From: Promethearchaeia archaeon
Lineage (GTDB): Archaea > Asgardarchaeota > Lokiarchaeia > Sigyniarchaeales > SOKP01
Direction: 5' to 3'
NCBI GenBank assembly: GCA_029856155.1
Contig: JAHQWL010000083.1
Coordinates: 38,514 to 102,513 of the forward strand
DNA length: 64,000 nucleotides
Shown here piece after piece: positions 36,353 through 54,907 of the stretch (its first letter is position 1; each line of letters starts with the position of its first letter). Both the position numbers and the translations under genes were made by a program. The notes under the pieces were generated by a model. That model did not search any database, was not told the origin of the DNA, and saw only the letters and a list, made by a program, of their open reading frames with translations.

Positions 36353-36962
36353 TTAAAACTCTAAAAACCCCGGATCATCAAAAATATCTTCAATTTTTCT
36401 TTCTTTCTTTATCTTGGAATCTCTTTCCGCGAATAATGACTCCTCCTCAGTCCGAACCCCTCGATCTAATTCTTCAGTATCAAGTTTCAATAATGCATCT
36501 TTTTCAAGTCGTTTAAATTCTTCAGCTTTCGTTTTCCAGTCATTTATTTCATCCAAATTAACATCTTCTTCATCTAGTAATATCGCGGCTTTTACTTTGC
36601 AAAGATCTGACAAAATAGAGTAGGCTAATGCTAATTCTCCCCATTCTTGGTCTACTTTCAATCGCTGTATTCTTCTTTCTAATCTTTGTAGTTCTTGATC
36701 GGCATAATAGATATCAATAAAATCTCCAAAAGCATCAACGGGTTCAGAAATCGAATTAACTAATACTTCTTTTGTTAACTCACAATTTCCACATTTCACA
36801 GTTGCAAAAGCACCCTTCTTTTTAATATCAGTTACTTTGACGCTTTTTTCACCGCATTCGAGGAAAGATCGGAATCCGATCTACTCATTCTGGGCAGGTG
36901 AAAATTTTCGGTACTCTTTTAACCCTTTTTGGTGATACTTGTTTACGTTTTCTTCTTCCCAT
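36353..36962 (-). CDS. elf1: Transcription elongation factor Elf1 with C-terminal extension; two exons (36888-36962, 36353-36856), 192 aa spliced
   Basis: Exon 1 MGRRKRKQVSPKRVKRVPKIFTCPE; exon 2 CGEKSV...VKCGNC...SEPVDAFGDFID; together they give the Elf1 signature. Confidence 0.9.
36857..36887 (-). other. Putative 31-nt BHB intron in elf1
   Basis: Insert TGAGTAGATCGGATTCCGATCTTTCCTCGAA; removal restores CPECG; folds as a BHB. Confidence 0.85.
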
Positions 36963-37155
36963 AAATATCACTACGTAAATATGTTATAATTCTATCTAAC
37001 ATCAATTAGATTAAAGAAAAGGAAAGCTAAAATATTTTTGCTTTTATGTGAAAATGTCTAAAGGAATTTAGTAAAATTTTTTAGGAATGTTTAATTATTC
37101 CAATTACTCTTTTTGACTGAAAAGTTTTAGTAATTTTAATAATATTGAGTGGATT

Positions 37156-38262
37156 TTGGGTATGGAGCATACTAATTTAACATTGGAAGATGATAAAAAC
37201 CTTATTGACAACATTCTTGATAATGTAGATATGAGATACATAATTCTTTTCCTATATATTATTAGGAATGATTTATTTAAAGATTTAACCGACAATAATC
37301 TCATAGAATCCTTTGAGAGAGTATTAGTTTTAGATGATATTTATAAGAGCAACGTCGTGAATTTTTGGGATGAGGAATTTATTGAAATTTATATAGATTT
37401 AGGCCTAATTAAAAATATTCGAAGTTTGAGAGAGTTTAAACAAAAAGATGATGATTTTATTATTAAGTTAGGTGAGGAAACAATAACTATTGAAAATGAC
37501 ACAATCTCGGTTCCTGAGGACACTCTTTTTTTAATAGTAAATAAAAAATTCAAATTTTTAACCAGAAGGAATTTTAACTTGGCTCTTACGAGGTTAAAAG
37601 GAGTTCGGTGTGAGAAAAGTAATCTTATTCATTCATTAATTAAAGGGATTGATGAACATGATTATACATTATCAGATGATTTTTATTATATTTTGGATCA
37701 ATATGGGAACATATATCAAGCAATTAAAATTGAACTTACCATTGAAGGATTTTATCAAAGGTTTAAAGAAATTAAAGAAAAAATTACTGGATATATTAAA
37801 ATTGTTGAACCTGTATTAAATTTGAAGCTAGTTATAAAAAAAATTAATAACGCTATAGAAGAAAATAAAGATGTTATACAATATCTTAAAGATGAAAAAG
37901 TAGAACTCTCAGAAAAATTCAATTTTGAAAAAATTGATAAAAGTAATGACATATTTACACAATGGAATTCACAACTGTCGTCAATGTTAAAGTGCAGATT
38001 CCAAATTGAACAAATTAATAATAAACTAATAGATTTAAAAAAATATTATTCTGGTAAAAACAAAAACTATAGTTATTTAGAATTTATCGAAAAAGTCTCT
38101 TTTAATGAAGATGGATTAGTAAACCGTATTCAAAATTCCTTGATTGACTTGCGAAAAGAGTTAGTAAAAATTAATGAGCAAATTTCTAAAATAACAGAAA
38201 AAGAACTAAAATTATTAAATTTAGATTATGAAAGATTAGTATTAATGAGTAGTGATGAGTAA
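37156..38262 (+). CDS. Hypothetical wHTH plus helical-bundle protein (operon gene 1)
   Basis: wHTH-like segment LTRRNFNLALTRL...YTLSDDF, then a coiled coil. Confidence 0.65.
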   Translation: MGMEHTNLTLEDDKNLIDNILDNVDMRYIILFLYIIRNDLFKDLTDNNLIESFERVLVLDDIYKSNVVNFWDEEFIEIYIDLGLIKNIRSLREFKQKDDDFIIKLGEETITIENDTISVPEDTLFLIVNKKFKFLTRRNFNLALTRLKGVRCEKSNLIHSLIKGIDEHDYTLSDDFYYILDQYGNIYQAIKIELTIEGFYQRFKEIKEKITGYIKIVEPVLNLKLVIKKINNAIEENKDVIQYLKDEKVELSEKFNFEKIDKSNDIFTQWNSQLSSMLKCRFQIEQINNKLIDLKKYYSGKNKNYSYLEFIEKVSFNEDGLVNRIQNSLIDLRKELVKINEQISKITEKELKLLNLDYERLVLMSSDE

Positions 38263-38264
38263 AT

Positions 38265-39233
38265 TTGAACTGTCCTGCATGTGATATCAAGATGGAACCC
38301 TTAGTGGAGGGAATTTTTCAATGTCCTCGATGCAAAAAAATTGTTAAGCAAAGTGACAATAAAACAGAAGCAAAGGAAAAAATTAAAATTGAAGAAGGAA
38401 TGTTTCAAGAGGGTATGTATTTTCATAAAAACGCAAGTTTGAACAAACAATACGAAATCTGTGAAAAAGGTATCACGATCAATAAAACCGAAAATCGGTT
38501 ATTCGCAGCATTAATTTGTCATAGCGCTTATCTAAAAGATGAAAAATATGTGAGATTATCTTGGTGGAAAAATTATCAACATGCAGGTATGTTCAAAATT
38601 TATGATAAATATGTTTTAAATAACACTATTAGTGCTTTGGAAAAAGTTGATGACTCTTTTAATGATATATGGAATTGGAGTGGAAAATATGGCAAACAAA
38701 AATCTAAAACAAAAGAAGACTTAGAAAGAGAGAAGAATTTAGAGATTATTAAATATAGGATTATTGAAAATCGAACTTGTCCCAGATGTCATAAAAAGAT
38801 GGATAAAATGAAATCCCATTATGAGTGTCAACACTGTGGAGAAATTGTTATATTGGAAGGATATAACCAACCAATTTTTAATATTTCATCAGAAGACCTC
38901 GATTTAAGGTTTCATGCTAATTTTCCAATAAATTATTATTTACCGGTTAGTGGAATAACTCTTAAATGGTTGATGGGGGAGTGGAAAGCATTAGCAGTAA
39001 TATATTCTAAGGATAATCCCAATAAAAAATGGTTAAGGTTCTATTGGTGGGTGCGTGATTTGAGTAATATTTTAAAATATGGACAGAGGGAAATGGGAAA
39101 TGGCACTCAGATGGGCTGGAAAGCTCAGAGAGGCATGTCTTCTCCGAATCTCTATGATAAAAAGCTTGTTAGACCACTAATTAATGCCTTAAAAAATATC
39201 TCAAATGAATTACATTGGAATATAGATGAATAG
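38265..39233 (+). CDS. Protein with a duplicated zinc-ribbon plus Trp-rich beta module
   Basis: CPAC/CPRC and CPRC/CQHC ribbons; repeated GIT...RxxWW...YDK...AL. Confidence 0.7.
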   Translation: MNCPACDIKMEPLVEGIFQCPRCKKIVKQSDNKTEAKEKIKIEEGMFQEGMYFHKNASLNKQYEICEKGITINKTENRLFAALICHSAYLKDEKYVRLSWWKNYQHAGMFKIYDKYVLNNTISALEKVDDSFNDIWNWSGKYGKQKSKTKEDLEREKNLEIIKYRIIENRTCPRCHKKMDKMKSHYECQHCGEIVILEGYNQPIFNISSEDLDLRFHANFPINYYLPVSGITLKWLMGEWKALAVIYSKDNPNKKWLRFYWWVRDLSNILKYGQREMGNGTQMGWKAQRGMSSPNLYDKKLVRPLINALKNISNELHWNIDE

Positions 39234-39259
39234 AATTTCCTAAAAAATAAGAGAAAATT

Positions 39260-40399
39260 ATGACAGAAGCTCAAGATACGACATGGAAAGGATTATTAAA
39301 TGAGTTTCAAAATGGAATCGAAAAAGCATTAGAAGAATTGCAAAAAAGAGACATAGAAAATATTCCAGGTGCTAAGGAGGCTCTTATTCAAAGATTAAAC
39401 AATATGAAGCTTCATTTTCCAAAAAATAATGGAGATCTTTTTTTAAAATCGATTAATGATAAAATTCAAAACGCTTTTTTTCCTAACACCAATAATTTTT
39501 CCGAAGCTTTTGAAAAGATTTTAAAATCGAGAACTCATGAACAAGATTTTATCATTAATGAATTATTAAATGGATTTATAACATCTAAAGCAAAAGCTAT
39601 AGCATCTGAAACTCAAGGACCGATAATAGATAGAATGGTTGAGGCGTTTAGCAAGAGAAATGACTTTTATATCGTTGATCATCAATTTTTTGCTATGTTT
39701 GGGGATCCAAATAAACCACGTCATTATGTGAAAAAACAACTGGAAGAACTTGTAAATATGTTTGGACTTGTATCCAAAGAACTAGTAATTGAAAAGGATG
39801 TAAGAAGGAGTGAAGAAAAAGTTTACGTGTTCTATACATTTCCAAGTGAAATTATTGAAATTCTTGAAGAGAAATATTTGATCATTGATGAAGAATTAGG
39901 ATATGCTTATGTCTCAAATAATTTTGATAGAAATGTTTTCATTTGTATGTTTTTAGCAAATGTAGCAATTAATAGAGATGATATTGATAAAATTGGCGGA
40001 TCATATACAATTAATGGAATCTCTGCAATATTTGCTCTAATATTACTGCTTAGTTTTATGCCTAAATTAAGTGTTGACGAAACGAATCCAGTATTAAATG
40101 ATCCAAATTTTGACGAAAAAAATATGAGTGTTATTCCAAAATCTTGGATGATGAAACATGTGTTAGAATCTTTATTCGAACCACTCATTAAAATCATAGC
40201 ATATAGGATAGGAGGAGGATTGTGGTTGTCTAAAATAATAGATTCAGAAATTAATAAAAAGATCCATAATCAAATAAGATTTCTGCTTAAAGATGTAAAT
40301 AAGTGGATACTGGGAAATTTATGCCGAGTTGAAATACCCATTTTCATTGAGATCTCTAATATATTTACCGAAATTATGGTAGGTTACAAGGAGGAATAG
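39260..40399 (+). CDS. Hypothetical protein
   Basis: 379-aa ORF within the operon. Confidence 0.7.
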   Translation: MTEAQDTTWKGLLNEFQNGIEKALEELQKRDIENIPGAKEALIQRLNNMKLHFPKNNGDLFLKSINDKIQNAFFPNTNNFSEAFEKILKSRTHEQDFIINELLNGFITSKAKAIASETQGPIIDRMVEAFSKRNDFYIVDHQFFAMFGDPNKPRHYVKKQLEELVNMFGLVSKELVIEKDVRRSEEKVYVFYTFPSEIIEILEEKYLIIDEELGYAYVSNNFDRNVFICMFLANVAINRDDIDKIGGSYTINGISAIFALILLLSFMPKLSVDETNPVLNDPNFDEKNMSVIPKSWMMKHVLESLFEPLIKIIAYRIGGGLWLSKIIDSEINKKIHNQIRFLLKDVNKWILGNLCRVEIPIFIEISNIFTEIMVGYKEE

Positions 40400-40425
40400 T
40401 ATAACTAAAAGCTGGAGATATTATT

Positions 40426-41733
40426 ATGAGTTATAAAAAAAAATCTACAAGAAATGTAAAACCCGGGAGAAAAAGAGAGAAATGGACAGACATCTTACCA
40501 AGATATTTAACATTTATCAGTCATATGCGTCCAATTCTTAGAGAAACAAGAAGACTTATTATCGATTTAGATGCAGATTTATTGTTAGATACAGAAATCT
40601 TAGATAAGATACGTCAAGAAGAAGAAAAGCGGAATATTCGTAAAGTGAGGGCACTTTCAGAATTTTCCGCTATGTATCGATCAAATGTCTATGATATTAT
40701 TAAAGATTTTATTATTAAATATCGAGAAAAAATCCCTATAATTGATATTAAGGATTATATTTTAGATTTTCTACATGAATCCGTTAATGCTTTAAATATA
40801 TTACGTCATATTACGAATCCTGATGAACTTAATTTAGAGAATACTTACTTATATCAATTAGTGAAATTTATCGAAAGTAAATTATTTCCAAGAGGAGCAA
40901 CTCTTAAGATCATATATAATAAATTACTCCAACAATCTGTTGACATTTATGAATGTCAACGTCATTTATTACAATCTCATACCTATTATAGAGAAAAATT
41001 GGAGAGTCTAGAATATTTTGAAGTGCCTAGTATATCTCCAAAGGTTTATCAAATTATAAACAATATAACATCACTTTATAACTTAGATCCTAACTTTGGA
41101 GAATATCCTGAGAAAGAGAACCATGAAATTCCAATGATCTTAAAAAATGATATCTTTCTGCCATATGTCGATTCGATTGCGAATCCTGAAGAAGAAGCTA
41201 TAGAAAAAATTGCTGAACGCCTAGGTTTACGCTTAGTTGATGGAATATTTTTAGCTCCACAAGAAGATTTTGTAGATCTATTGTTAGAAAATAATTTTTT
41301 ACGAGAGAATAAACAATCTGATGGAACAATAAGATATTATCCACAATTTAGTAATGAAACACTAGTATTATATTATTTGGCTTTTGCATCTCAAAGAAGA
41401 GGATTTTTATCAAAGGAATTAATTAATTGGATTTCAATGAATTTTTCTTTCTTGATATATATGGGTATTTTAAAATGGAAACTATCTGATGAAAATATAT
41501 TCTATGCAATCTTTAAGGATTTACAAACAAATGAAAAAGTTCTTCCATATTTAATGAAACTTATATGTTTTCCGAATTATCTAGGATTAGATAAGATGAA
41601 AATTAGAGATTCAGTTCAATATCGAAAAGAAATCTTTAATTTCATTGGATCGCAGATCGATAATCTTAAAGATTTTATCTATGAAATATCATTGTATTGT
41701 GAAAAACTTGAAAATAATAATATAAAAAAATAA
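40426..41733 (+). CDS. Hypothetical helical protein
   Basis: 435-aa ORF with GGAG upstream, within the operon. Confidence 0.7.
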   Translation: MSYKKKSTRNVKPGRKREKWTDILPRYLTFISHMRPILRETRRLIIDLDADLLLDTEILDKIRQEEEKRNIRKVRALSEFSAMYRSNVYDIIKDFIIKYREKIPIIDIKDYILDFLHESVNALNILRHITNPDELNLENTYLYQLVKFIESKLFPRGATLKIIYNKLLQQSVDIYECQRHLLQSHTYYREKLESLEYFEVPSISPKVYQIINNITSLYNLDPNFGEYPEKENHEIPMILKNDIFLPYVDSIANPEEEAIEKIAERLGLRLVDGIFLAPQEDFVDLLLENNFLRENKQSDGTIRYYPQFSNETLVLYYLAFASQRRGFLSKELINWISMNFSFLIYMGILKWKLSDENIFYAIFKDLQTNEKVLPYLMKLICFPNYLGLDKMKIRDSVQYRKEIFNFIGSQIDNLKDFIYEISLYCEKLENNNIKK

Positions 41734-41759
41734 AATTAATATTAAAGAATTGAGGAAAA

Positions 41760-42869
41760 ATGAGTAAACCAAGTTCTAAAAATGAAGAAAATATTGTATT
41801 TGTTGATGATGTTATAAAAGAACGACTTGGAAAGTATGGAGCAGTCTATTTTCCTTCAGATATTAAGGAAACTGTAGAAGATATCTTAGGAAATAAAATT
41901 AAAAAAGAAATTTTGGATGATTTTTTTAATGCTTTAAAAAAGTATGATGAATTTACTAAAAATTTGAAAAATACTAACTTGAGCCCAAATTTAACAGTAC
42001 TTCTATATGGGCCTCCCGGTACAGGAAAAACTTCCTTAACAAGAGGTTTTGCAAAGAAACATGATATTCCAATTTGTGTTGTAGAATCTGATAGACTGGT
42101 ATCACCTTTATTAGGGGATACTATTAAAAATATTCGAGGTGTTGTTGAATTAGCAGCTGAAATCGCCAAAGAAAGAGGTGCGTTTATTTTATTTTTTGAC
42201 GAGATAGACGCAATAGGCTCAGAACGATCCAATATACATGAAGTAGGAGAAATAAAACGAGCGGTTATTTCTTTTCTACAAGTCATAGATAGAATAAACT
42301 ACGAGGGTGTACCTCTAGCGATTTTTGGCGCAACAAATCATCAACATCAGCTAGATTCGGCAATATGGCGTCGTTTTACATTCCATTTTAAATTTGATTT
42401 CCCAGATTTTCGTTTAAGAAAAAAAATTATTGAATCTTTCATGGAAAAACTAAAAAATGCGAAAATTGGTGTTGATGACTTGATTTTTTCGAACTTGAAT
42501 AATGAATATAAAGAATTTTTAGCAATATCAAAAGAACTAGAAACGAAATTAGGACATACTATTTCTGAATTTAATGATAATATTTTTTTGGAAGAATTGA
42601 GAAAAAAAAATAAATTACCGGGGCTTCTAGGATTAACATATGGTTATTCTGGTTCTGATATTGAAAGGGGGACGAAAGTTGCTTTATTAAAGGCAATCAA
42701 TACAGGGCTTTTAACATACGATATTTTTTATGATTCCATAAAATTAGTTGGTGGTACCGCTATTCATGTTGAGAGACAAGATGTTTTAAGTGAAGCAAGA
42801 CAAAATAAAACTTATATAAGTAGAAATGAGGGAAAAAAAAATAAATTATTAGGTCCTCCTGATATATAA
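41760..42869 (+). CDS. Single-ring classical AAA+ ATPase
   Basis: GPPGTGKT, FFDEID, ATNH..LDSAIWRRF, GYSGSDI. Confidence 0.92.
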   Translation: MSKPSSKNEENIVFVDDVIKERLGKYGAVYFPSDIKETVEDILGNKIKKEILDDFFNALKKYDEFTKNLKNTNLSPNLTVLLYGPPGTGKTSLTRGFAKKHDIPICVVESDRLVSPLLGDTIKNIRGVVELAAEIAKERGAFILFFDEIDAIGSERSNIHEVGEIKRAVISFLQVIDRINYEGVPLAIFGATNHQHQLDSAIWRRFTFHFKFDFPDFRLRKKIIESFMEKLKNAKIGVDDLIFSNLNNEYKEFLAISKELETKLGHTISEFNDNIFLEELRKKNKLPGLLGLTYGYSGSDIERGTKVALLKAINTGLLTYDIFYDSIKLVGGTAIHVERQDVLSEARQNKTYISRNEGKKNKLLGPPDI

Positions 42870-42912
42870 ATAAAATATAATTAATTATATTACAATTAAG
42901 TTCTTTAAAATT

Positions 42913-43953
42913 ATGATCAACAGCCAATTATTCGATCTAGAAAAAATCAAGAAATTTACTCTTCCTATCGAAGAACTCCAAATAAAATTGAATGAATTAA
43001 CTCAAACCTCTAACTATGTTATGGAAAATATCCAAACTATTGAAAGACAGTTTAAAGATCAAAATTTTCTTTTCCAAATAGAAACCGTCGAAAAATTATT
43101 CAAAAATATCAATATCCAATTGAACAAAATATCAAGAACTAATCTTAAAAAATTTCTAGATTTACAGGATCGATTAATTAGAAAATATAAAGAAAACTTT
43201 AAAGATAAATTGAAAACTTTAAACCTAAATGAAGAATTGACAAAATTGATAGGATTATCTTTAATTGAAGATAAAAAAATTAGTAAAATCATCGATTTTG
43301 TTTCTTTTATTCCTTCAATTGAAATTCCAGAATGGTTAGATCTCTTGGATTCCTTAAAAAATAATACAATTTTTCTGAAATCGGTAAAAAAAATAAGAAA
43401 TTATTATCAAGAATTATTAAAAGCAAGACTTGAATTAGAATTGAGAAAAGTTCCTGAGGATACAGATCCAATATTAATAAAAGACTATAAAAATTATTTC
43501 GAAAAGACTCCCACTTTAACATTTAACACTTTCATGGAAAAAATAGAGAGTCAGTTAACTCAGCAAGAAATATCAGTCAAAAAAGGAGTTATTAAAAAGG
43601 TTAGAGAGAAAGAAGAATTAGAAAAACTAAAAAAGAAACAAGAAGAACAAAAGGAAACATATGAAAATTATTTAAAGCATTCTGATAGCTAATTTAAACG
43701 AATGAGGCGGAAGAAACGCAGAGAAAAATTAACAGAAATCTCCCCAGAATCTAAAGGAAAAAAAGATATTGAATTAACTGATGAAGTTTCTGAAAAAATT
43801 AAGAAATTTAAATCTCAGCTTGAGAAAAGTTTTGATGAAAAATATATGATTCAAAAAGATGAAGATAAAGATCCTCTTGATTTAATAAGAGAAAGAAAGA
43901 AAAGAAAAGAAAAAGAGTACAAGAACTATAAAGACCATTTTGAAAAACCATAA
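42913..43953 (+). pseudogene. Coiled-coil protein interrupted by one in-frame TAA (43690-43692); nonsense mutation or sequence error
   Basis: The 259-aa and 83-aa ORFs share a frame: ...YLKHSDS*FKRMRRKKRREK... Confidence 0.65.
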
Positions 43954-43958
43954 TTAAA

Positions 43959-45590
43959 ATGAACAAGGTATTAATTATTCAAAAAGATAATTTTATTATA
44001 TCCATTGGCTCAAATGATGTTCCAATTAAAAATAAATTTACATTAATTAATGGAAAAATAAAAAAGAATCTATTAAATAAATATAAAAATAATTTGTTTC
44101 TTGAAATTTCTAAAAATTTAAATAAAATTCCTATAGAAAAATATATTGGGTTTTTACAAGAAGAATCTGAAGAATTTCATGAATTACTGAAATCCAGAAG
44201 ATTACTAAATTTTATACACGAATATCGTAAAATAGTTTCTAGTAATATAATCCTCTTTTCTCAATATAATGAAGTTGTAGATAATTTAATTCTAATCCTA
44301 AGATACAATCTACTTTTAAAAAAAAAGGAATCTCTATTAAAAGAATTAGAATTATCAAAACAGTATAAAAAATCAAGTGACATTACCGCTAGTACAGATT
44401 TAATAAAAAAATTGAATGAATCCTTGGCTATTAATAAAAAAAACCTAAAGTTTTTAGAGGAAGATTATTTTCAACGGAAAAACCAAGTTGATCAGATTAA
44501 AAAAACAATAAGTGAATATACTTCAAAAATTCAAGAATTAACTAAACAAAAAAAACAGTATTTTAGTCAAATTAATAAAATCACACGAGAAATGACTGGA
44601 GACCCCCCAGAACCAAAAAAGGAATTACGTAATAATATCACAGAGTCTGGCAACAAGATAACAAATGCAGATAAAATAAAAAATTTTCAAAAGAAAGCAA
44701 AAGAGATTCAGTTTGAAATTACTAAAATAAAGTCTAAAAAAAGTCAAACACAATTTAAACTAGAGGAAATAACCCTTGTTTTTGAAATATATGAAAAAGA
44801 TTATCAAGAATTGGTAGAGTTGATCAATAATGAGGAAAAAAGAATAATTGATCTTCAATCTGAACTTAAAAATAAAATTAAAGATGAAGAAAATACACTC
44901 ATTCAGGATCTTGATTTAATTGATTTGAAATCATTTAAACCCTCACAAGAAATTAAAGATGATTTAAAAAAAACAGAATCTGAATTAAATAACATAATCC
45001 TTACAAAATATTTCAATATTCCCCGGAATCCTAATGATTTATCTCCTATCACTAAAAAACTAAAGGATTTAGATGAAAAAATAAAAAATCCAGAATCAAA
45101 AATTATAATCACAATAAATGAAAAAGATATTTTGGAATCTTTTGAAGAATTTAGAAGATTGGAGAAGCATCTTAACGAGATCGAATCCTTGGTAAATAAA
45201 TTTTTAACAGAAATAAACATAAAGTCTCAGCTTAGAATTATTGTAAATGATGATAATAAGTACTTCTTTATTGAAATTACATTCATAAGAAATGATAAAG
45301 AAAAAGTTGATTTTGATGGGTTAACTACTCCTGAAAAAATATTTTTCATTATAGCATTTTATATCTCAATTAAACTTAATATCAAAATAGAAAATATTAT
45401 TTTTTCAAATATATCAATCTTAAGCAAATATGACAAAGCAGGTTCCATTTATAGAACAATCAGAAAAATTTTACCAATTTTCGAAAGGGAGTATAATTTA
45501 TCAAGATTTAATTTAATCTTTATCATTTCAAATTTAGAATTAAAAAGAGAAATTAAAAATTTAAAAATTAATACTATACAAGAGAGCTGA
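43959..45590 (+). CDS. Short SMC-like coiled-coil protein with degenerate ABC-head motifs
   Basis: N-terminal KFTLINGK (Walker A remnant), long coiled coil, C-terminal GLTTPEKIFFIIAF (signature remnant), IIFSN in place of Walker B DE. Confidence 0.6.
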   Translation: MNKVLIIQKDNFIISIGSNDVPIKNKFTLINGKIKKNLLNKYKNNLFLEISKNLNKIPIEKYIGFLQEESEEFHELLKSRRLLNFIHEYRKIVSSNIILFSQYNEVVDNLILILRYNLLLKKKESLLKELELSKQYKKSSDITASTDLIKKLNESLAINKKNLKFLEEDYFQRKNQVDQIKKTISEYTSKIQELTKQKKQYFSQINKITREMTGDPPEPKKELRNNITESGNKITNADKIKNFQKKAKEIQFEITKIKSKKSQTQFKLEEITLVFEIYEKDYQELVELINNEEKRIIDLQSELKNKIKDEENTLIQDLDLIDLKSFKPSQEIKDDLKKTESELNNIILTKYFNIPRNPNDLSPITKKLKDLDEKIKNPESKIIITINEKDILESFEEFRRLEKHLNEIESLVNKFLTEINIKSQLRIIVNDDNKYFFIEITFIRNDKEKVDFDGLTTPEKIFFIIAFYISIKLNIKIENIIFSNISILSKYDKAGSIYRTIRKILPIFEREYNLSRFNLIFIISNLELKREIKNLKINTIQES

Positions 45591-45595
45591 TTTTA

Positions 45596-46099: not shown

Positions 46100-46130
46100 A
46101 ATCAAAAAATTTAAAAAAATAAAAAAAAAG

Positions 46131-46559: not shown

Positions 46560-46623
46560 AATACTTCAGAACTTTCGTAGTTAATATTATAATTATATTC
46601 TTTTGTTTTTATTCTTAATTCAA

Positions 46624-47280
46624 CTAATTTAAAATACAATTTATAAGTTTGGAGATATTTTCTCCAGTTGTAGCACTTGTAGTGAAAACTTTAAGCTTTG
46701 GATTAATCTCCATTGCATCTTTTATCATATCTTCAATATTCACATCTATAACATCTTTTAAATCAATCTTATTGATAACCGCAATATCTGAATATTTAAA
46801 TAGCATTGGATGTTTTCGAATAACCCATGGACCTTCAGTTATAGAGACTATTACAATCCGTTTCTCAGTACCTAATATAAAATCAGAAGGACAAATTAGA
46901 TTTCCAACATTTTCTATAAAAATAATGTCAACTTCATTTAAATCATAGTTTTTTAAAACCTGAGAGATGTGATATGAATTAAGAGCACATTCTTTCCCAG
47001 TATTAATTTGGATAGTTTGCACCCCAAATTTTTCAATTCTATCTGCATCTATTCTAGTGGCGACATCACCATTTATAACAAAAAGCTTATAATCTTTTCC
47101 AATTCTCTCTGCAATATTTTCAATAATCGCTGTTTTACCTGCACCTATAGCACCTACTAAATCGAAAGATCTTATCTTTTTCTTTTTTAATAATTGTTTA
47201 TTTTGTTCTGCTAATCTATCATTATTTTCAATTAAATCTTCATTTAATTCTATGATTCGTGAGGTTTTTTTTTCAGACAT
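46624..47280 (-). CDS. hypB: Hydrogenase nickel incorporation GTPase HypB
   Basis: GAIGAGKT, INTGKEC, ENVGNLICP, SITEG, NKID. Confidence 0.93.
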   Translation of the reverse strand: MSEKKTSRIIELNEDLIENNDRLAEQNKQLLKKKKIRSFDLVGAIGAGKTAIIENIAERIGKDYKLFVINGDVATRIDADRIEKFGVQTIQINTGKECALNSYHISQVLKNYDLNEVDIIFIENVGNLICPSDFILGTEKRIVIVSITEGPWVIRKHPMLFKYSDIAVINKIDLKDVIDVNIEDMIKDAMEINPKLKVFTTSATTGENISKLINCILN

Positions 47281-47381
47281 CTTAAATATTCGATTGCTAT
47301 TTTGAATTTAATAGAATATAAAAATAAAGACTTATTCCTTGATAATTTTTATGAATACGAATGGAATATATAGATTAGTTT

Positions 47382-48323
47382 CTATCTAGTGGGAAATTGA
47401 TACTTATAGATAATATAAGCTCCTAAAATTCCTCCTAATTCTGGTAAGTAAAATACGATATAAGCAAGGTCATACCAAGCGAATAGCAAGACAGGAAATA
47501 GCCTAAGTATTATTATAATCAACAAAAAAGATCTTCCATTCATTCTAACTGGAAGGAAATACATAAAGGCAGTAATTTTTTTATTCATAATTGGAAATAG
47601 TGAATATGATAATAACCCTAATATTCCCCCCCAAGCTAATCCCGTATAGAGAATATAAGAATTTATGGGATATATAGATATTAATGAAAATCTCAATAAA
47701 ACGTAGAATAATGCTGTAAATAGACTGCAAACTATATACAATTTTATTAAAAATTTTGTCCCTAGGCTTAATTCAATATTTCTAGCCATAAAATATAAAA
47801 TAAAAAGCATAATAAATAAGAAGAATAAACTTATCACATCACCAGAACTAACAAAAAGACTAGTAAAAATAGTATAGTATGTGAATTTATAAACTAATCC
47901 ATGTAAACTTAAATAGAAGTATTCTGGTATATAATTATACGTAAAAACTAAACCAACTATCGAGAATATTATAATCATAATAAACAAGCTTTTAGTGCCT
48001 TGATATTGCGAATGCTTTTCATAAGATTTCTGATAACTCCTTAATGTTCTCTCTCTTTGCTTTTCTTGTCTTTTTAAATACTTCTTTAAAGGTCTCGGCT
48101 CTTTATCTAAATAAGCACGAGATTGGGACTTTCTTATTTCAGTATCTTCGTATCGTCTTTTAGGTTCTTTTAGAGTAGTAGGAACAACTGGTACATGTTT
48201 TAACTCAAATGTACACTCGTGATTTTCGGGTAAACGATGCTTTTTACAAAAAGTTCCACCACAATATTTACATGTGAATGGTAAATAACTAATTTGATTT
48301 CCACAAAATTCGCAATATGTCAG
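47382..48323 (-). CDS. AN1 zinc finger fused to a rhomboid-like membrane domain (probable CTG start; 313 aa)
   Basis: Frame stays open 112 codons upstream of the listed start: TYCEFCG...[24 protein letters not shown]; GGTGA precedes the CTG at 48323. Confidence 0.8.
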
Positions 48324-48501
48324 CCTAGTTCACCAAGAAAGCACTAAATTAATTCAAATACTTCTATTAAGAATTAAAAAGTTAATTATTTAAAATTATC
48401 ATCCTTCATAATTTTTACTTTTCATTTTTTTCATTAAATCATGAAAGATCTAAAATTTATTAAAAAAGTTGTTCTATTAAAAATTAACTTCTATTTTATA
48501 A

Positions 48502-49488
48502 TCATGTTATATATGGACTAGTAGGTAAATAAATGAACAAATAAGTTGCTATTAATAGCACTAATAATGAACCACAGAGTATAATATATACTTTTTTATT
48601 CCATTTCCAAATATTTTGCCCATCAAGGATGCCAATAGGAATCATATTAAACGATCCTAGCATGAAGTTTAAATTCGCCGCATAACATAAAAACAAATTG
48701 AGTGGATAAGTTTGGATTATAAAAGAGATTATGAAAAGGATAGTACCATATACGAGATTAACTGTAGGGCCAGCGGCTTTACATAAACCGGTAGTTCTAT
48801 CAATTTTACTTAAACCTAAAACTACTACAGCACCTGGTAGAGCTAATGAGGGGAAAGTTGAACCACTAGATATTAATGAATATAGCCCAAATATTACCCC
48901 GGTAACTGTTAATATCATTCCAAAAGTTAACAATCTAAATTTGGTTTGAAGTCCAAAATGAACTGCTACTTGTCTATGCCCTAATTCATGAAAGAGAAAA
49001 GCTGTAGCATAAAAACCTGCTAACATAAAAATTGCCCATCCGTATCCCATAGTAATTAATTGTTGGTTGAAGAAAGTTAATATTCCAATAAAAAAAATCA
49101 GAGAAACACCAACTATAAAATGAAATAATTCTGATTTATGAGCTAATAAGATTCCTTTGAATTTAATACCTGAATCAGGATCAAATGCATCTACAGGAAT
49201 TTGACTTTCTTGGCGATACCAAGTATATGTTCCATCTGTAGTACCTCTTATGACTCCGGGGGTGTCTGTTTGTTGATATGTTTGTTCATGAGATACATGT
49301 ATTACTTGAGGAGGCGAAACATAAGTTTGAGGCTCTGATGATAATTGTTCTAACCTTAAACTTTCGATTATAATATTACAATCATGATTTATGGGCTCTT
49401 TATGTCTTGCACAATAATAATATCCACAATTATTGCATTTAAAGAGTTCTCCAATTATTTCTTCACCACAATGAGCACAATTTGCCAT
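48502..49488 (-). CDS. AN1 zinc finger fused to an M50/site-2 metalloprotease
   Basis: CAHCG...CNNCGYYYCARH..P..HDC; HELGH; AAGP..N; FNMIP...LDG. Confidence 0.9.
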   Translation of the reverse strand: MANCAHCGEEIIGELFKCNNCGYYYCARHKEPINHDCNIIIESLRLEQLSSEPQTYVSPPQVIHVSHEQTYQQTDTPGVIRGTTDGTYTWYRQESQIPVDAFDPDSGIKFKGILLAHKSELFHFIVGVSLIFFIGILTFFNQQLITMGYGWAIFMLAGFYATAFLFHELGHRQVAVHFGLQTKFRLLTFGMILTVTGVIFGLYSLISSGSTFPSLALPGAVVVLGLSKIDRTTGLCKAAGPTVNLVYGTILFIISFIIQTYPLNLFLCYAANLNFMLGSFNMIPIGILDGQNIWKWNKKVYIILCGSLLVLLIATYLFIYLPTSPYIT

Positions 49489-49708
49489 AATTACGACCTA
49501 AAATGAGTTATTTTATTTATCAAAAGAATTATATTTTAATAAATTATAAAATTAAAGATTTAAAATTTTATTTAGAATTCTAGTTCTTTATAATTTAATA
49601 GAGATCTTAAATTTTCTCTCCTAAGGCTTATTAATGTTAAATTAAGAAAATTATATTAAACTGTAATATACTAATTAATTAATATTAAGGATTTCATAAG
49701 TGTGTATT

Positions 49709-49870
49709 ATGAGTGAAGATGAAAATGAAAATGAAATGTCATTAGATGAGGAGCGTAAGAAATTAAAAGACTTGGGGGTCACAAGTACATGGGATATTTT
49801 AACTACTGGAGAAAAGAAAAAGAAAAGGCCTGAAGACGAGGATAAACCAGCCTTTAGGGAATTCAAATGA
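49709..49870 (+). CDS. 53-aa charged microprotein (not in ORF track)
   Basis: MSEDENENEMSLDEERKKLKDLGVTSTWDILTTGEKKKKRPEDEDKPAFREFK; purine-rich coding-like island in AT-rich intergenic DNA. Confidence 0.6.
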   Translation: MSEDENENEMSLDEERKKLKDLGVTSTWDILTTGEKKKKRPEDEDKPAFREFK

Positions 49871-50426
49871 TGTCTTTGATAATTCCTAATCTTTTCTAAA
49901 TAAGATACTATTCTTTTTTTTAAATTAAGACATTTAATTACTATAGAATATTATTTCAATTTGAGGTTATTTTGTCTACGCCTGTTTCAATTCACGATGG
50001 ATCATTTACTACAAATACAATTATTCTCAACAAATTTACTTGTTCTTTATATTTCACTCGTTTGGGGCTCGACATTACCATTATTATTAGAATTTTATTT
50101 ATTTTTAAAACTGCTACAATATGATTTTTTTCTATTCATTTTGCTATTAATATATCAATTTTATGTTAGATATATAATTTTAGTGTCTAGTTCTATTATA
50201 ATAGCAAAAATCTTTTTACTAATAATCAATTTCATTCATATACCTAAGGAAAAAGGTCTTTGGAAGAAAGTAAACAGATAGAAACGAATTGAAAAGAATT
50301 GCATATATTTTAGTCAACCCGCGAAAAAATGGAAAAAAAATAATAATATTTTAAATTAAACAAAAAATAATTATAGTTCAAAAAATTCTATTTAAATATT
50401 ATCACAAGATTTAGGGAGCTTGAAAA

Positions 50427-50693
50427 ATGGGTATTAAGGTATATTGTCCTACATGTGAGAAAATCGTCGTATTACGCCGGAAAAACTTCGATCACGTCTA
50501 TCATGAGATCCTCTGTTTTATGGTAATCCTCACTCTCGGTTTGGGCTTTATTATCTATTATATATTAAAATATGCAAAAAAGCCTAATACTTGTCCCAAT
50601 TGTGAATCTATTTTTGATTTAAACAATCTTTCTACAAAAATGATTAATATTAATCAACCATTTAGGTCTAGTAGTACATTTACACTTTCTTAG
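50427..50693 (+). CDS. Small LITAF-like zinc-ribbon membrane protein
   Basis: CPTC, hydrophobic segment, CPNC; GGGAG upstream. Confidence 0.7.
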   Translation: MGIKVYCPTCEKIVVLRRKNFDHVYHEILCFMVILTLGLGFIIYYILKYAKKPNTCPNCESIFDLNNLSTKMININQPFRSSSTFTLS

Positions 50694-50946
50694 TTTTCAA
50701 TTTTTTGTTGCATCTAGGACAAATTATATCATCATCAGTAAGTTCTTTTTTCATAATTATTTTTTGATATTTACATTTTGCATTTGGGCAAATAAGTATA
50801 CATTTTATTAACTGATTTGATGGTTTCTCATGAAGTTTCTTTATTGCTTTTTCACTTTTGTCTTTTTTGGTTTGATTGGGGGATTCCTTGTCATTCCTTA
50901 TTTTTTTTGCGTTATCTTCTGGCTTGAGCCATTTATCTAAACCCAT
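50680..50946 (-). CDS. Small zinc-ribbon protein
   Basis: CPNAKC...CPRC. Confidence 0.7.
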   Translation of the reverse strand: MGLDKWLKPEDNAKKIRNDKESPNQTKKDKSEKAIKKLHEKPSNQLIKCILICPNAKCKYQKIIMKKELTDDDIICPRCNKKLKTKKV

Positions 50947-51078
50947 TCGAACTCACTTTAGAAATTTCTTATATTATGAAGACTTAAGACATGCAATTAA
51001 ATAATTGCTTCCTATAAATAAAAACTAATAAATAAAAAAAGAGAAAAAAATAAAAGTTTGTTTAACATGAATAGAATC

Positions 51079-52323
51079 CTAATATACTTGAACCTTGCCT
51101 GCAATTAATCTCTTTCTTAAATCAAAAAAGCTTTCTTTACTAAGTTTTTCAGCGCTTACTTCTTCTGCAATTCTCTTCACTGAACTAAAGTCTACATTAT
51201 CAGCAGGAATTAGTTCAATTGAATTTACCCATGGATCAGTTATTGGTCTTCCGATCTGAGATAATAACTTAACATGAGCTTCTAAAATATCTCCTTGTCC
51301 TCGTTTTACAATTTCTCTTGCAATCTCTGTCCCTAGAACGTTATAAAGCTTCCCCACATGGTTAATTGGATTCTTTCCACAAACAGCTTCTAAGCTCATT
51401 GGTCTACATGGAGTAATAAGACCATTAGATCGGTTACCACGTCCTACTTCTCCATCATCTCCAGCTTCAGCAGATGTGCCAGTAATGGTCAAATACATAA
51501 TACCCTTTTCGATATTGTCCGCCACATTTACTTGGCATGATACATCGCGTTCTGGGATTATATCTGCAGCTAAATCTAAAACTGCTTCTTTGATTTGATT
51601 AGTATAGCTTACATATTCACTAGCATCATTGATATATTTACTTACCATTGCTGCTGCGACAGTAATTCCAACTTCATTATCAATTCTCTCAACCATTACC
51701 TTAATATCTTCGCCTGATGCTTTACATTTATCCTTGAATTTATCAGAATTGATCAGCCTTTCAGCTTCTAAAGTTATTTTTTCTACGTCCGAATAAGGAG
51801 CATATCCCACTCCAAAACTGGTATCATTAGCAAGTGGAATTTCTTCAGAATGATGAGATTGATCAAAAACTCCTGTTAAATCTATTGATCCTGGCCGAAC
51901 AGCATAATCAAATTGAATATCTCTATTTAGATCTAGATTTCTAAAAATTTCAGAAAGCACTTTACGCTGGGTTTCTATACAAATAGTTGGAATAGGAATA
52001 TATTCAAGTTTATTTGTACCGTCCCCACATTCTGTAAGGATCTGATTAATAGCCCGCCCAACAATCAAAAAGTATTGTGGCTGGATAATTTGTCCACCAC
52101 CATATTCCGGTCTTGCGGTTCCTCCAACTAAAGCAGCTTTATCGACATTATGGTGGTATACCCGATCGAAATTTTCAAGATAATATACACACAAGGCTCT
52201 GGAGCAAGCATCGGCAACAGCATCGCACACCGTATCAGGATGTCCAATCCCCTTTCTTTCACAGAGTTCTGGGAATTCACTTTTTTCAATTGGTAAAAAA
52301 TTAGCGCGAGTAATTTTCAACAT
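51079..52323 (-). CDS. mat: Archaeal S-adenosylmethionine synthetase
   Basis: ERKGIGHPD, ANDTSFG, GEDIKVM, GRGNR.NG, GKNP.NHVGK. Confidence 0.96.
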   Translation of the reverse strand: MLKITRANFLPIEKSEFPELCERKGIGHPDTVCDAVADACSRALCVYYLENFDRVYHHNVDKAALVGGTARPEYGGGQIIQPQYFLIVGRAINQILTECGDGTNKLEYIPIPTICIETQRKVLSEIFRNLDLNRDIQFDYAVRPGSIDLTGVFDQSHHSEEIPLANDTSFGVGYAPYSDVEKITLEAERLINSDKFKDKCKASGEDIKVMVERIDNEVGITVAAAMVSKYINDASEYVSYTNQIKEAVLDLAADIIPERDVSCQVNVADNIEKGIMYLTITGTSAEAGDDGEVGRGNRSNGLITPCRPMSLEAVCGKNPINHVGKLYNVLGTEIAREIVKRGQGDILEAHVKLLSQIGRPITDPWVNSIELIPADNVDFSSVKRIAEEVSAEKLSKESFFDLRKRLIAGKVQVY

Positions 52324-52512
52324 TTCATTTAACCAACTTCTTAATTATATAAATAGTTCCTTTAAATATGTTTTTAAATTAATTATAAGTTAAATTTCTT
52401 ATTAAATGAAAAATGCACTTAATATTTTTTATACTTAGTAATAATTAATAACCTTTATAAATATTTTTTACTTATAATATGCTTAAGAAGCATAAATATT
52501 TTTTTTTAAATT

Positions 52513-53082
52513 ATGGAAATTTTACCATCATTTAATGACATAAAGCGTTTACGTAAGAAATTAAATATTAGTCAAAAGGATCTAGGAGATGAACTAAAAA
52601 TTCCGCAGTCTACAATTTCTAGGATTGAAAATGGAACAATAGATCCTCCATACTCTAAATTAAAAAGAATTTATGAATATCTTGAGAATGAACGTAAGAT
52701 AAGAGAAAAATCTAAGAAGCATGCTATAGATATCATGACTTCCGATATTATATTTATCAATTCTAGCTCAACTATAAGAGAAGCCGTAGATCAGATGAAT
52801 AACCATGAAATCTCACAATTACCAATAATAGAAAATAATCAAAATATAGGAAGTATAACTTCAAAAAAAATACAGAAATCTATAACAGATAATCCAGAAA
52901 TTATCAATATGGATGTATCACTTATAAAAGAATTACCATTTCCAGAAATTGATAAAAATTGGAATGTGAAGGATATATCTAATTTACTCTTGAATTATTC
53001 TGCTGTTTTGGTGAAAGCAAATAATGATTATATTGGAATAATTACGGACTCTGATCTTCTTAGAATATCAAATAAAAAGTAA
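52513..53082 (+). CDS. XRE-HTH plus CBS-pair transcriptional regulator
   Basis: SQ..L....IPQSTISRIE.G..DP; two CBS motifs. Confidence 0.9.
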   Translation: MEILPSFNDIKRLRKKLNISQKDLGDELKIPQSTISRIENGTIDPPYSKLKRIYEYLENERKIREKSKKHAIDIMTSDIIFINSSSTIREAVDQMNNHEISQLPIIENNQNIGSITSKKIQKSITDNPEIINMDVSLIKELPFPEIDKNWNVKDISNLLLNYSAVLVKANNDYIGIITDSDLLRISNKK

Positions 53083-53199
53083 AAAAAATTCAAAACTAAT
53101 ACTATTTTATAAGATAAAAGCATTAAATTTGTGAAGTGATAATACTTAATAGAAAAAAGAATAATTTTTTTATACAATATCGTTTTTTAAAGATTAGAT

Positions 53200-54201
53200 T
53201 TGACGATTGAAAAGATCCTTCAAAGGATTGATGGTTTATTAAAGAATGCTAATTATGAAACATTAGCATTGGGAAATTTCACGGAAAAAAAAACTAAATT
53301 CTGTTTTGATCTTTTAGTTAAAAAAGATGATATGGTATTTAGCGTAAAAATTTTTCCAAATATTGACAATTTAAACCCAGAAATTATTCAAGATCTTAAA
53401 TCTTTATCCCTAATCCTCAAATCAAAACCTTTATTAATTGGAATCAGAAATCGGTATCAAAAATTAGAAGATAACACCATCTATGTAAGAGAAGGTTTAC
53501 CCTTTATTACGCTTAATACGCTTGAGAATATCCTTAATGAACAATACCCACACGTCTTGGCAAGAAGAGGCGGAGGAGTTGTATTCTTAGATGGGATATT
53601 AATGAAAACACTGAGAGAAAAGCATTCAATAACTCGAAAAGAACTATCAGGAATCTTAGGAGTGACTAAACGAACAATTTGTTCTTATGAGAATGAATCT
53701 ATGAGACCTTCCGAGAAAGTCGCTGAAAGGATATCGGAGATCTTGGAAAATAATGATCTATTTAAAAAAATCAATATTTTTGGATGGAATATTAAAGATA
53801 ATATCGATGAAAAAGAAATCTTGGAAAAAAACGAGTTAAGTGAATTTGAATCTCGTGTTCAAGGTATAGTAAAAGATATTGGACTTTCTTCATATTGGTA
53901 TAAAAAAGGGTCTGTTCCTTTCAAATTGTCTTTATACTCCCATCCTGAAAAAATTAATTTAGACGGTTTTTATCCTCTATTTTCTGGTATAACGGAAGAG
54001 CAAGATAAAATCAATGAAATGAGTTTAAAATGTTTAAGGATGTTTACAGAGTTATTCCATAAAACTTCACTTTTTATAATAGATAACGATATTAAAATTC
54101 CTGATCCGTTTAAAAAAGCAAAAATTCCTATTGTCAAAATTAAAAATTTAGAAAAAGTTGATGATGAAGAAGAATTCATTGAACTCGTCCAAGATTCATG
54201 A
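53200..54201 (+). CDS. Archaeal HTH transcriptional regulator (COG1395-like)
   Basis: CFDLL..K, NIDNL, YVREG, RRGGG; HTH LGVTKRTICSYE. Confidence 0.85.
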   Translation: MTIEKILQRIDGLLKNANYETLALGNFTEKKTKFCFDLLVKKDDMVFSVKIFPNIDNLNPEIIQDLKSLSLILKSKPLLIGIRNRYQKLEDNTIYVREGLPFITLNTLENILNEQYPHVLARRGGGVVFLDGILMKTLREKHSITRKELSGILGVTKRTICSYENESMRPSEKVAERISEILENNDLFKKINIFGWNIKDNIDEKEILEKNELSEFESRVQGIVKDIGLSSYWYKKGSVPFKLSLYSHPEKINLDGFYPLFSGITEEQDKINEMSLKCLRMFTELFHKTSLFIIDNDIKIPDPFKKAKIPIVKIKNLEKVDDEEEFIELVQDS

Positions 54202-54907
54202 TAATAAAAGAGAACTAATATGTGGAATAGATGAGGCTGGTAGAAATTAATTCAATTCGAATTAAGTGTTAATAGGCTCTGTCTTAGGTCCCATGGTTTT
54301 ATGTGGAATTTGTTTCGATGTTTCAAAAATTAATTATATATCTGAAATTGGAGTAAAGGACTCAAAGAAATTATCTTCTAAAAAGAGGAGTGAATTAACT
54401 GAACTCTTGAAAAAAAGCTGTTATTCTCATAAAATCGTTGTAGTTGGACCTCAGGAGATTGATGAGAGAGAAATTAAAAAAGTTACATTGAATCGACTTG
54501 AAGAATTAAAAATGGCAGAAATTATAAACGAATTAAAACCTGATATTATATACATAGATGCTGCTGATGTTAATGAAGAAAGATTTGGAAAGTCTATTAA
54601 AAATTTATTAGATTACAAACCTAAAGAAATTATCTCTAAACATAAAGCAGATGATCTATTTCCCATAGTATCAGCGGGATCTATTGTAGCAAAAAATAAA
54701 AGAGATACCTTAATTCTTGAAACCCATAAAGAATATGGGGATTTTGGTTCTGGTTATCCTTCTGATATCAAAACAATAAATTTTCTAAGAGAATATGTTA
54801 AGAAATATAAAAAACCACCAAAAATTGCTAGGAAATCTTGGGATACTACCAAAAAAATTATAGAAGAAGAGGTATCAACTAAGAAAATAACTGAATTCCT
54901 CAATTAA
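54161..54907 (+). CDS. rnhB: Ribonuclease HII; two exons (about 54161-54243, 54274-54907)
   Basis: Exon 1 ...ICGIDEAGR joined to exon 2 GSVLGPMV gives the DEAGRG motif; DSKKL, HKAD, GSGYPSD. Start may be 54161, 54164 or 54179. Confidence 0.9.
54244..54273 (+). other. Putative 30-nt BHB intron in rnhB
   Basis: Insert AAATTAATTCAATTCGAATTAAGTGTTAAT contains an in-frame TAA and hairpin TTAATTC/GAATTAA; BHB geometry. Confidence 0.85.

Follow-up and report, generated by a model that had tools for sequence, protein, structure and literature searches.

Candidate bulge-helix-bulge introns within the elf1 and rnhB coding sequences of an Asgard archaeon

Two protein-coding genes of a Promethearchaeota genome that look essential, elf1 and rnhB, are each interrupted inside a conserved motif by a short insert that carries in-frame stop codons. 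Judged from sequence comparisons, these inserts are very probably archaeal bulge-helix-bulge (BHB) introns residing within coding sequences, and the comparative evidence for their predicted splicing is strong. Both genes are located in a 64-kb stretch of DNA (the window, which here means the whole stretch analysed), together with intron-containing tRNA genes and the genes for RtcB and archease.

The interrupted elf1 and rnhB genes

The elf1 gene is on the minus strand. Its exon 1 (36888..36962; 25 codons, MGRRKRKQVSPKRVKRVPKIFTCPE) ends in ...FTCPE, within the first CxxC of the zinc ribbon, and is followed by a putative 31-nt BHB intron (36857..36887), having an in-frame TGA immediately 3′ of exon 1, and by exon 2 (36353..36856; 168 codons and the stop). 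Exon 1 covers positions 1–26 of the 79 positions of the Pfam profile Zn_ribbon_Elf1, and exon 2 covers positions 28–78 (39 bits). We observed that the outer helix h (UUUUCACC.GC / GC.GGUGAAAA) and the inner hairpin h′ (GAG.AGAUCGG/CCGAUCUUUC) consist of 10 pairs each, that three of the four pairs of the central helix H (CCAG/CUCG) are formed, the remaining one being a C.C mismatch that is present in six of the eight intron-bearing species, and that the two 3-nt bulges, AAU and AAU, are on opposite strands. This motif is a relaxed BHB, not a strict one. Cutting after the second nucleotide of each bulge gives ...FTCPE|CGEKS..., which is the sequence of the intron-less orthologues; the predicted spliced RNA has the junction CCAGAA|UGCGGUG and the junction peptide FTCPECGEK.

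The rnhB gene is on the plus strand. Its exon 1 (54161..54243) ends in ...GIDEAG-R with the first two bases of the R codon, and its start is provisional (the candidate is ATG-ATG at 54161/54164; at the position equivalent to 54215 the relatives have ATG or TTG and the rnhB of this genome has CTA). The putative BHB intron (54244..54273, 30 nt) contains two in-frame TAA codons and is followed by exon 2 (54274..54907). Exon 1 supplies positions 1–8 of the Pfam profile RNase_HII and exon 2 covers positions 9–199, so that the read-through product covers positions 1–199. All four pairs of the central helix H (UGGU/GUUA) are formed, as one A-U pair and three G.U wobbles, and the bulges, AGA and AUA, are again 3 nt each on opposite strands. 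The inner hairpin h′ (7–9 bp, counted as 9 pairs) and the outer helix h (8 pairs) have one interruption each, and in both of them a mismatch adjoins the closing pair. Here also the motif is relaxed rather than strict, and MFE folding alone did not return the BHB for rnhB. The same cut, after the second nucleotide of each bulge, yields ...GIDEAG R|GSVLGPMV..., matching the RNase HII family consensus, with the predicted RNA junction ...GCUGGUAG|AGGCUCU and the junction peptide DEAGRGSVLGPMV.

An earlier note on this DNA had claimed that the two genes carry inserts of 31 and 30 nt with in-frame stops in their conserved motifs, and that these fold as BHB, the standard cut restoring the exact conserved protein. 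We confirmed the positions; the restoration is borne out by the orthologues and by the continuity of the Pfam profiles, with the fold being relaxed in both cases.

From these features we infer that the elf1 and rnhB transcripts are cleaved and ligated. In the pre-mRNA, the exon flanks would pair together (helix h), four intron bases would pair with four exon bases (helix H), and the intron would fold into a hairpin of 7–10 bp (h′), thereby exposing to the splicing endonuclease a pair of 3-nt bulges, one per strand. This enzyme would cut each bulge 3′ of its second nucleotide, RtcB and archease would join the exons, and the 30-nt intron would probably be circularised. An RNase HII that is active, with its catalytic DEAGRG motif, and an unbroken Elf1 zinc ribbon would be encoded by the spliced mRNA alone; on the unspliced mRNA, translation would end at the stops near the intron start. 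If this is true, translation must await splicing or discard the truncated products.

Introns of the tRNA genes and the splicing machinery

Three tRNA genes of the window are interrupted as well. The gene for tRNA-Leu(GAG) (11032..11174, plus strand) is interrupted at two non-canonical positions by strict BHB introns, 11065–11094 (30 nt, CGCU/GGCG) and 11119–11146 (28 nt, UAGG/CCUA), and cutting at the canonical sites leaves an 85-nt tRNA-Leu. In tRNA-Thr(CGU) (9568..9669, plus strand), a strict BHB intron (9596–9624, 29 nt, AGCA/UGCU) sits between the D arm and the anticodon arm, and the same cut rule gives the correct tRNA. The gene for tRNA-Lys(UUU) (8247..8350, minus strand) carries an intron of roughly 30 nt (about 8277–8306) located 3′ of the anticodon stem; its 8-bp hairpin and two of four central-helix pairs make it a relaxed motif, as judged partly by manual reading of the sequence. 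The earlier note had described four tRNA introns of 28–30 nt in the window, three strict and one relaxed, as well as rtcB and archease, and our analysis agrees with it on all of these. The interrupted tRNAs were missed or mislabelled by ARAGORN, with or without its intron option, and by Rfam at the gathering threshold; ARAGORN labelled tRNA-Thr(CGU) wrongly as Phe.

The RNA 3′-phosphate ligase gene, rtcB (22383..23690, minus strand; PF01139, 569.7 bits), is the sole copy in the genome, and it is convergent with the gene of its cofactor, archease (21927..22346, plus strand; PF01951, 153.9 bits). The genome also encodes two EndA paralogues, at C13:3758–4351 and C52:106867–107472: an alpha-like one with the Tyr/His/Lys residues and a beta-like one lacking the His. 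The nearest match of the alpha-like paralogue is chain B of the Aeropyrum pernix EndA (3p1z/3ajv), which we take to be the catalytic subunit. The splicing enzyme would be a broad-specificity (alpha-beta)2 EndA built from both paralogues.

As the elf1 and rnhB motifs are relaxed, the inserts could also be thought to leave the RNA through machinery other than EndA and RtcB, for example through another structure-specific nuclease and ligase. However, both the geometry of the inserts and the places of the cuts match EndA substrates exactly, the same rule produces correct mature tRNAs in this window, genes for both EndA paralogues, RtcB and archease are all present, and 30 nt is far below the size of self-splicing introns. 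We therefore regard this alternative as very unlikely and favour processing of the BHB introns by the tRNA splicing enzymes.

Conservation of the inserts among relatives

We compared the two loci among about 40 relatives, comprising 30 congeneric species and out-of-genus relatives. Mapping of presence and absence, which the earlier note had proposed, gave different patterns for the two genes. The elf1 insert is found in 8 of the 30 congeners, in independent assemblies, and is absent in the other 22, whose sequence at this site, CC(N)GA(R)|TG(Y)GG, is the predicted splice product with exact boundaries. Of the 30 congeneric rnhB loci, one was left out because its assembly has a gap where the insert would be, and the other 29 all carry the insert at an identical position; eight out-of-genus relatives belonging to other families lack it, their motif GxDEAGRGPVxGP being uninterrupted. 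Recurrence in independent assemblies, 8 for elf1 and 29 for rnhB, shows that the inserts are no artefact of assembly.

The pairing of the motifs is maintained among these species. For rnhB, 93.1% of the pair cells are kept across 29 species, as against 24–46% with slid partners, and for elf1 92.7% are kept across 8 species, as against at most 54%. Double changes were observed in four pairs of rnhB (29 species) and compensatory changes in seven pairs of elf1 (8 species), both counts being inflated by kinship among the species. In helix H of rnhB, the intron strand varies from GUUA to a fully Watson-Crick ACCA, the exon strand UGGU being fixed. The exon-exon helix of elf1 is paired at 10/10 positions, with its synonymous sites frozen, in 8/8 intron-bearing alleles, which fall in at least five separate lineages; among the intron-less alleles (n = 22) the pairing has a mean of 8.7/10 and the synonymous codons are variable. 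It is these comparative data, and not the motif statistics, that exclude a chance origin of the inserts.

The same data bear on the possibility that the inserts are never removed, being short palindromes that, once inserted, disabled the genes or broke them in two; the genes would then be pseudogenes or encode two-piece proteins. Truncated ORFs are what gene callers would be expected to report on this reading. Nevertheless, 29 species retain the rnhB insert together with an invariant exon 1, which bears the catalytic DEAGR motif, and an exon 2 that is 62–93% identical, and the structure and the exon pairing stay although the insert sequences drift. A search of the genome, which is 97% complete, revealed no second copy of elf1 or of rnhB, and the product of exon 2 alone would be devoid of the first catalytic Asp (rnhB) or of half the CxxC (elf1). 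Retention of the inserts in the mature messages is therefore highly improbable, and removal as BHB introns remains the preferred reading.

One species has an rnhB intron of 29 nt instead of 30 and one has an elf1 intron of 32 nt instead of 31. This tolerance of length changes rules out any reading with in-frame decoding of the insert. It also fits translational bypassing (ribosome hopping of the phage T4 gene 60 type), in which there is no RNA splicing and the peptidyl-tRNA leaves a take-off codon before a stop and a hairpin and lands on a matching downstream codon. Formally, elf1 fits such a scheme, as GAA-UGA is followed by the hairpin and, 31 nt later, by GAA-UGC. By manual reading, however, rnhB is devoid of a matching landing codon that restores the frame, and AGA...AUA GGC cannot yield R-G by hopping. 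Bypassing also leaves unexplained the conserved exon-intron pairing (H), the exon-exon helix, the two 3-nt bulges and the identical structures in the tRNA genes of the same window, and we consider it extremely improbable. Self-splicing introns of group I or group II were rejected: their ribozyme cores are hundreds of nucleotides long, the inserts are 29–32 nt, and the sole Rfam matches in the window are two tRNAs.

Further interrupted genes and known splicing systems

The earlier note had suggested that many mRNA introns exist genome-wide. Qualitatively this is supported, as the same type of ~30-nt intron was found in at least seven further genes of the genome (three more are candidates); the statistical scan, however, gave no total. 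The seven are mevalonate kinase (mvk), Rpo10, TFS, acyl-CoA dehydrogenase (ACAD), dodecin, AMP phosphorylase and a C2H2 zinc-finger gene. In the first five, 1–7 removals restore the conserved peptide, one of them with canonical BHB geometry, and for mvk the canonical-BHB removal is the only one that does so. The AMP phosphorylase and C2H2 genes have strict BHB introns that are absent in a congener; for Rpo10, 8 of 44 genomes have the interruption. These introns are uniform, ~30 nt, typically with a 9-bp stem and a 5-nt loop. Comparison with one congener (1.6 Mb, of which 1.24 Mb aligned) revealed five candidate inserts specific to this genome, two of them clean BHB.

We scanned both strands of the genome for BHB geometry (L 16–80), followed by ORF restoration, coding potential and hairpin energy, using as decoys the mirror-image geometry and cut sites shifted by ±1–2 nt. 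No clear excess over the decoys was seen at any threshold, owing to the low information content of the motif at 30% GC, a large background of operon junctions and ungapped filters that overlook relaxed motifs, among them those of elf1 and rnhB. Hence, the BHB motif by itself is not evidence. When the window was scanned under relaxed criteria for more mRNA introns, credible junction peptides emerged only for elf1 and rnhB. In a blastn-short search of the genome with 10 introns as queries, none had a related copy, and thus there was no sign of mobility by copying. An excess of in-frame interrupted ORFs turned out to be a search artefact (other frames) and involved no single stop codon, giving no evidence of stop-codon reassignment.

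Taken together, it is likely that this genus (Promethearchaeota, Lokiarchaeia-type) has a genome-wide, endonuclease/ligase-dependent mRNA splicing. Dozens of uniform ~30-nt micro-introns, of the same class as the introns abundant in its tRNA genes and with a fast turnover, would reside in protein genes, many of them for information processing (Elf1, RNase HII, TFS, Rpo10 and probably also uL11), and essential proteins would need EndA, RtcB and archease for their expression. As for turnover, the rnhB intron appears fixed in the genus, and the elf1 intron would have been precisely lost at least five times (or regained).

The precedent is the BHB intron in the cbf5 pre-mRNA of Crenarchaeota (Watanabe 2002; Yokobori 2009, PMC2738675). 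It likewise lies within a coding sequence, and its presence varies among related species through gain and loss, as does that of the elf1 intron. It is cut by a hetero-oligomeric EndA; in the present genome there are two EndA paralogues, and the cleavage is predicted. Unlike cbf5, the hosts here are elf1, rnhB and others, that is, many unrelated genes in one Asgard (Promethearchaeota) genome, with introns strikingly uniform at ~30 nt. According to PMC7714728, cbf5 was the sole mRNA example before the 5′UTR case described there. That case, the BHB intron of HVO_1309 in Haloferax volcanii, is processed by the tRNA splicing endonuclease (PMC7714728), but it leaves the reading frame uninterrupted, whereas the elf1 and rnhB introns interrupt it. 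Our literature search found these two cases described and no report of BHB mRNA introns in Asgard archaea. The elf1 and rnhB introns would represent a known intron type in new hosts and a new lineage, in a field where archaeal mRNA splicing has so far been documented for essentially one gene.

With the tRNA introns, the mRNA inserts have in common the motif, the size class, the presumed enzymes and the polymorphism among congeners. In an mRNA host, however, codons have to encode the outer helix as well as half of the central one, and the unspliced RNA can be translated into a truncated protein. The parallel with HAC1/XBP1 drawn in the earlier note is an analogy for the ligation step and not beyond it. 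Both are non-spliceosomal mRNA splicing by protein enzymes, and metazoan ligation is performed by RtcB with archease; the HAC1/XBP1 nuclease (Ire1) and its substrate (two 7-nt-loop hairpins), however, are unrelated, and that splicing is stress-regulated, whereas the elf1 and rnhB inserts give no sign of regulation.

Splicing of archaeal mRNA by the tRNA endonuclease has hitherto been regarded as a curiosity. For annotation, interrupted genes of this type would be truncated or missed by gene callers, and completeness estimates from marker genes would be biased. If one genome contains many such introns in its coding sequences, then interrupted protein genes and dependence on splicing would exist without a spliceosome on the archaeal side, in a host that is among the closest prokaryotic relatives of eukaryotes. 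This raises the question of how coupled transcription and translation deals with unspliced mRNA, and the genus may offer a system for the study of intron gain and precise loss.

Structure of the elf1 and rnhB inserts

Two genes of the window, elf1 and rnhB (RNase HII), were confirmed to carry one insert each of the bulge-helix-bulge (BHB) type. The elf1 gene, on the minus strand, starts with the ATG at 36962 and opens MGRRKRKQVSPKRVKRVPKIFTCPE, followed by TGA; reading resumes 31 bases past the break at TGC GGT GAA (CGEKSVKV...CGNCEL). As its first 25 residues match positions 1–26 of the 79-position Pfam profile Zn_ribbon_Elf1 and the downstream ORF matches positions 28–78, a single Elf1 zinc ribbon is broken inside its first CxxC. 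Within exon 2, 36353–36700 also encodes a ~110-residue C-terminal extension past the profile, which is charged, coiled-coil-like and conserved in the genus. On the plus strand, rnhB reads ...LICGIDEAGR, then 30 bases with two TAA codons, then GSVLGPMV...; exon 2 alone matches positions 9–199 of the RNase_HII profile, and the gene read through the insert matches 1–199. The start of rnhB (54161–54224) is ambiguous: the gene has CTA at 54215–54217, against an ATG or TTG in several congeners, and the frame is open upstream to an ATG-ATG at 54161/54164, where it overlaps, in a different frame, the end of the gene before it (53200–54201).

The canonical 37/38 tRNA case supplied the layout of a BHB (5'-h, H, bulge, h'...h', H, bulge, h-3', with central helix H, exon-exon outer helix h and intron hairpin h'), which we verified on the window's own tRNA-Leu. 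Both inserts match this archaeal layout. When cut after the second bulge nucleotide, the elf1 intron (36887..36857, minus strand) leaves the junction CCAGAA|UGCGG; its H is CCAG/CUCG with one C.C mismatch, its bulges are AAU/AAU, the exon-exon helix is UUUUCACC.GC/GC.GGUGAAAA and the intron hairpin has 10 pairs, a structure that MFE folding found approximately. The same cut places the rnhB intron at 54244..54273 (plus strand; junction GGUAG|AGGCU), with H = UGGU/GUUA containing three G.U pairs, bulges AGA/AUA, which MFE folding missed, and a hairpin of 9 positions. The earlier note had described inserts of 30–31 nt with in-frame stops, a BHB fold and restoration of the protein by this cut; all of this held, though both motifs are relaxed BHBs.

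Conservation and alternative explanations

The elf1 and rnhB loci were each collected from 30 species of the genus. The elf1 insert was present at the identical site in 8/30 and absent, with exactly the predicted junction, in 22/30. When seven congeners were compared with the whole window by blastn, four showed a clean 31-nt deletion at elf1, and no other polymorphic insert of ~30 nt was found within the protein genes of the window. Two AT-rich intergenic segments, 52416–52445 (30 nt) and 53134–53167 (34 nt), were absent in one congener each (G001 and G036, respectively). Since all 29 readable species carry the rnhB insert (the remaining locus has an assembly gap) and eight relatives from six other families of the class are uninterrupted (M.IAG(L/I)DEAGRGPV.GP), the rnhB intron is fixed in the genus and, so far, confined to it. 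Mapped onto a tree of two genes, the elf1 intron must have changed five times or more, as well-supported branches demand; given that its sequences are homologous, the simplest reading is that it was lost precisely and repeatedly.

The predicted pair cells were paired in 93.1% of cases for rnhB, compared with 24–46% for slid partners, and in 92.7% for elf1, compared with at most 54%; four pairs in rnhB and seven in elf1 were altered on both sides. In H of rnhB the codons GCU GGU hold the exon strand constant, and the drift of the intron strand, from GUUA to ACCA, is always toward pairing. The exon-exon helix of elf1 has 10 pairs with synonymous sites frozen in 8/8 intron-bearing alleles; the same sites vary in the 22 intron-less alleles (mean 8.7/10 pairs). 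The second in-frame codon of the rnhB intron (alignment columns 36–38) is a stop in 29/29 species (TAA, TGA or TAG), and these changes are equally compatible with a stem paired via G.U, so that selection for early termination and for structure are inseparable.

Translational bypass over the inserts is formally compatible with elf1 but not with rnhB, and leaves the exon-intron pairing unexplained. Intron length varies, at 29 nt for rnhB in one species and 32 nt for elf1 in one; this is harmless to structure-defined excision but incompatible with any in-frame decoding. A pseudogene or artefact is contradicted by the conservation of the inserts across 8 (elf1) and 29 (rnhB) independent assemblies and by the presence of a single Elf1 and a single RNase_HII gene, with no intact second copy, in the genome under study (G000; 4.1 Mb, 30% GC, 97% complete). 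Putative BHB mRNA introns in elf1 and rnhB are thus supported at the DNA level.

Splicing machinery and tRNA introns

The genome encodes one RtcB and one archease, both within the window as had been noted, and two EndA-domain genes. One EndA has the Tyr/His/Lys triad, and its nearest chains, from Aeropyrum pernix, Sulfolobus tokodaii and Pyrobaculum (3p1z_B/3ajv_B, 2cv8_A, 2zyz_B), are what we take to be catalytic subunits; the second, without the His, looks like a structural subunit. The EndA types able to cut relaxed motifs are (alpha-beta)2 and epsilon2 (PMC6379350).

The four tRNA introns of 28–30 nt reported earlier, three BHB and one relaxed, were recovered, all at non-canonical positions: two strict ones (30 and 28 nt) in tRNA-Leu(GAG), a strict 29-nt one (9596–9624) in tRNA-Thr(CGU) (9568–9669) and a relaxed one of ~30 nt in tRNA-Lys(UUU). 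ARAGORN with its intron option labels 9568–9669 as Phe(GAA); minus the 29-nt intron, it is a normal tRNA-Thr(CGU). Further tRNA introns differ among congeners. ARAGORN detects just 27 tRNAs across the whole genome, so it probably misses many tRNA genes because of their non-canonical introns.

Abundant tRNA introns are known in Asgard archaea (PMC11291895; bioRxiv 10.64898/2026.10.13.758758). The well-characterised archaeal mRNA intron is indeed, as the earlier note stated, that of crenarchaeal cbf5 (PMC2738675), explicitly the sole earlier case when a BHB intron was described in one Haloferax 5'UTR (PMC7714728). No account of BHB introns in protein-coding genes of Asgard archaea turned up in the literature searched, which is not proof of absence.

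Introns elsewhere in the genome and the genus

From a one-contig congener, 1.6 Mb was compared with the G000 genome (1.24 Mb aligned), and the lengths of G000-specific inserts peaked at 30–31 nt (10 cases). Five lie in genes that the congener has without a break: AMP phosphorylase, a C2H2 gene, the gene at C102:39636 and, with two, one long gene of contig C86. Among these five, only two combined a clean BHB with ORF restoration, namely those of the C2H2 gene and of AMP phosphorylase (the latter strict, UAGC/GUUA). In mvk (mevalonate kinase), Rpo10, TFS, acyl-CoA dehydrogenase and dodecin, 1–7 removals restore each conserved peptide, one of them with BHB geometry; for mvk this is the single restoring removal. 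The N-terminus of uL11 is in three pieces. The Rpo10 intron lies at 57504–57533 of contig C14, and the RNA_pol_N match ends at profile position 49–50 in 8/44 genomes of the genus (G000, G008, G016, G018, G024, G025, G026 and G096), with no match cut short there outside the genus in a Pfam search of 151 genomes of the class. The other genera sampled have the full match, apart from G082 and G110, both of one other genus, in which it ends at position 34. The suggestion of many mRNA introns genome-wide therefore stands in so far as the same type occurs in other genes, but statistical BHB scans of the genome gave no usable intron count.

The one-contig comparison also yielded one congener-specific intron. 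In the congener G006 (CP070831.1, ~1505071), a homologue of the gene at C29:16262 is interrupted by an insert of 30 nt that resembles a BHB (AUGG/ACAU, with a hairpin of 9 bp and an exon helix of 8 pairs); the G000 copy is uninterrupted, and therefore relatives have CDS introns of their own.

The verified introns have no mutual sequence similarity and form no common sequence family. Those of CDSs and tRNAs are uniform, mostly 28–31 nt with a 9–10 bp hairpin and a 3–5 nt loop, and their bulges usually start with A; the typical build is 1 + (9-bp stem, 5-nt loop) + 4 + 2 = 30 nt. Such uniform lengths suggest that intron size is constrained or that the introns arose in a common way.
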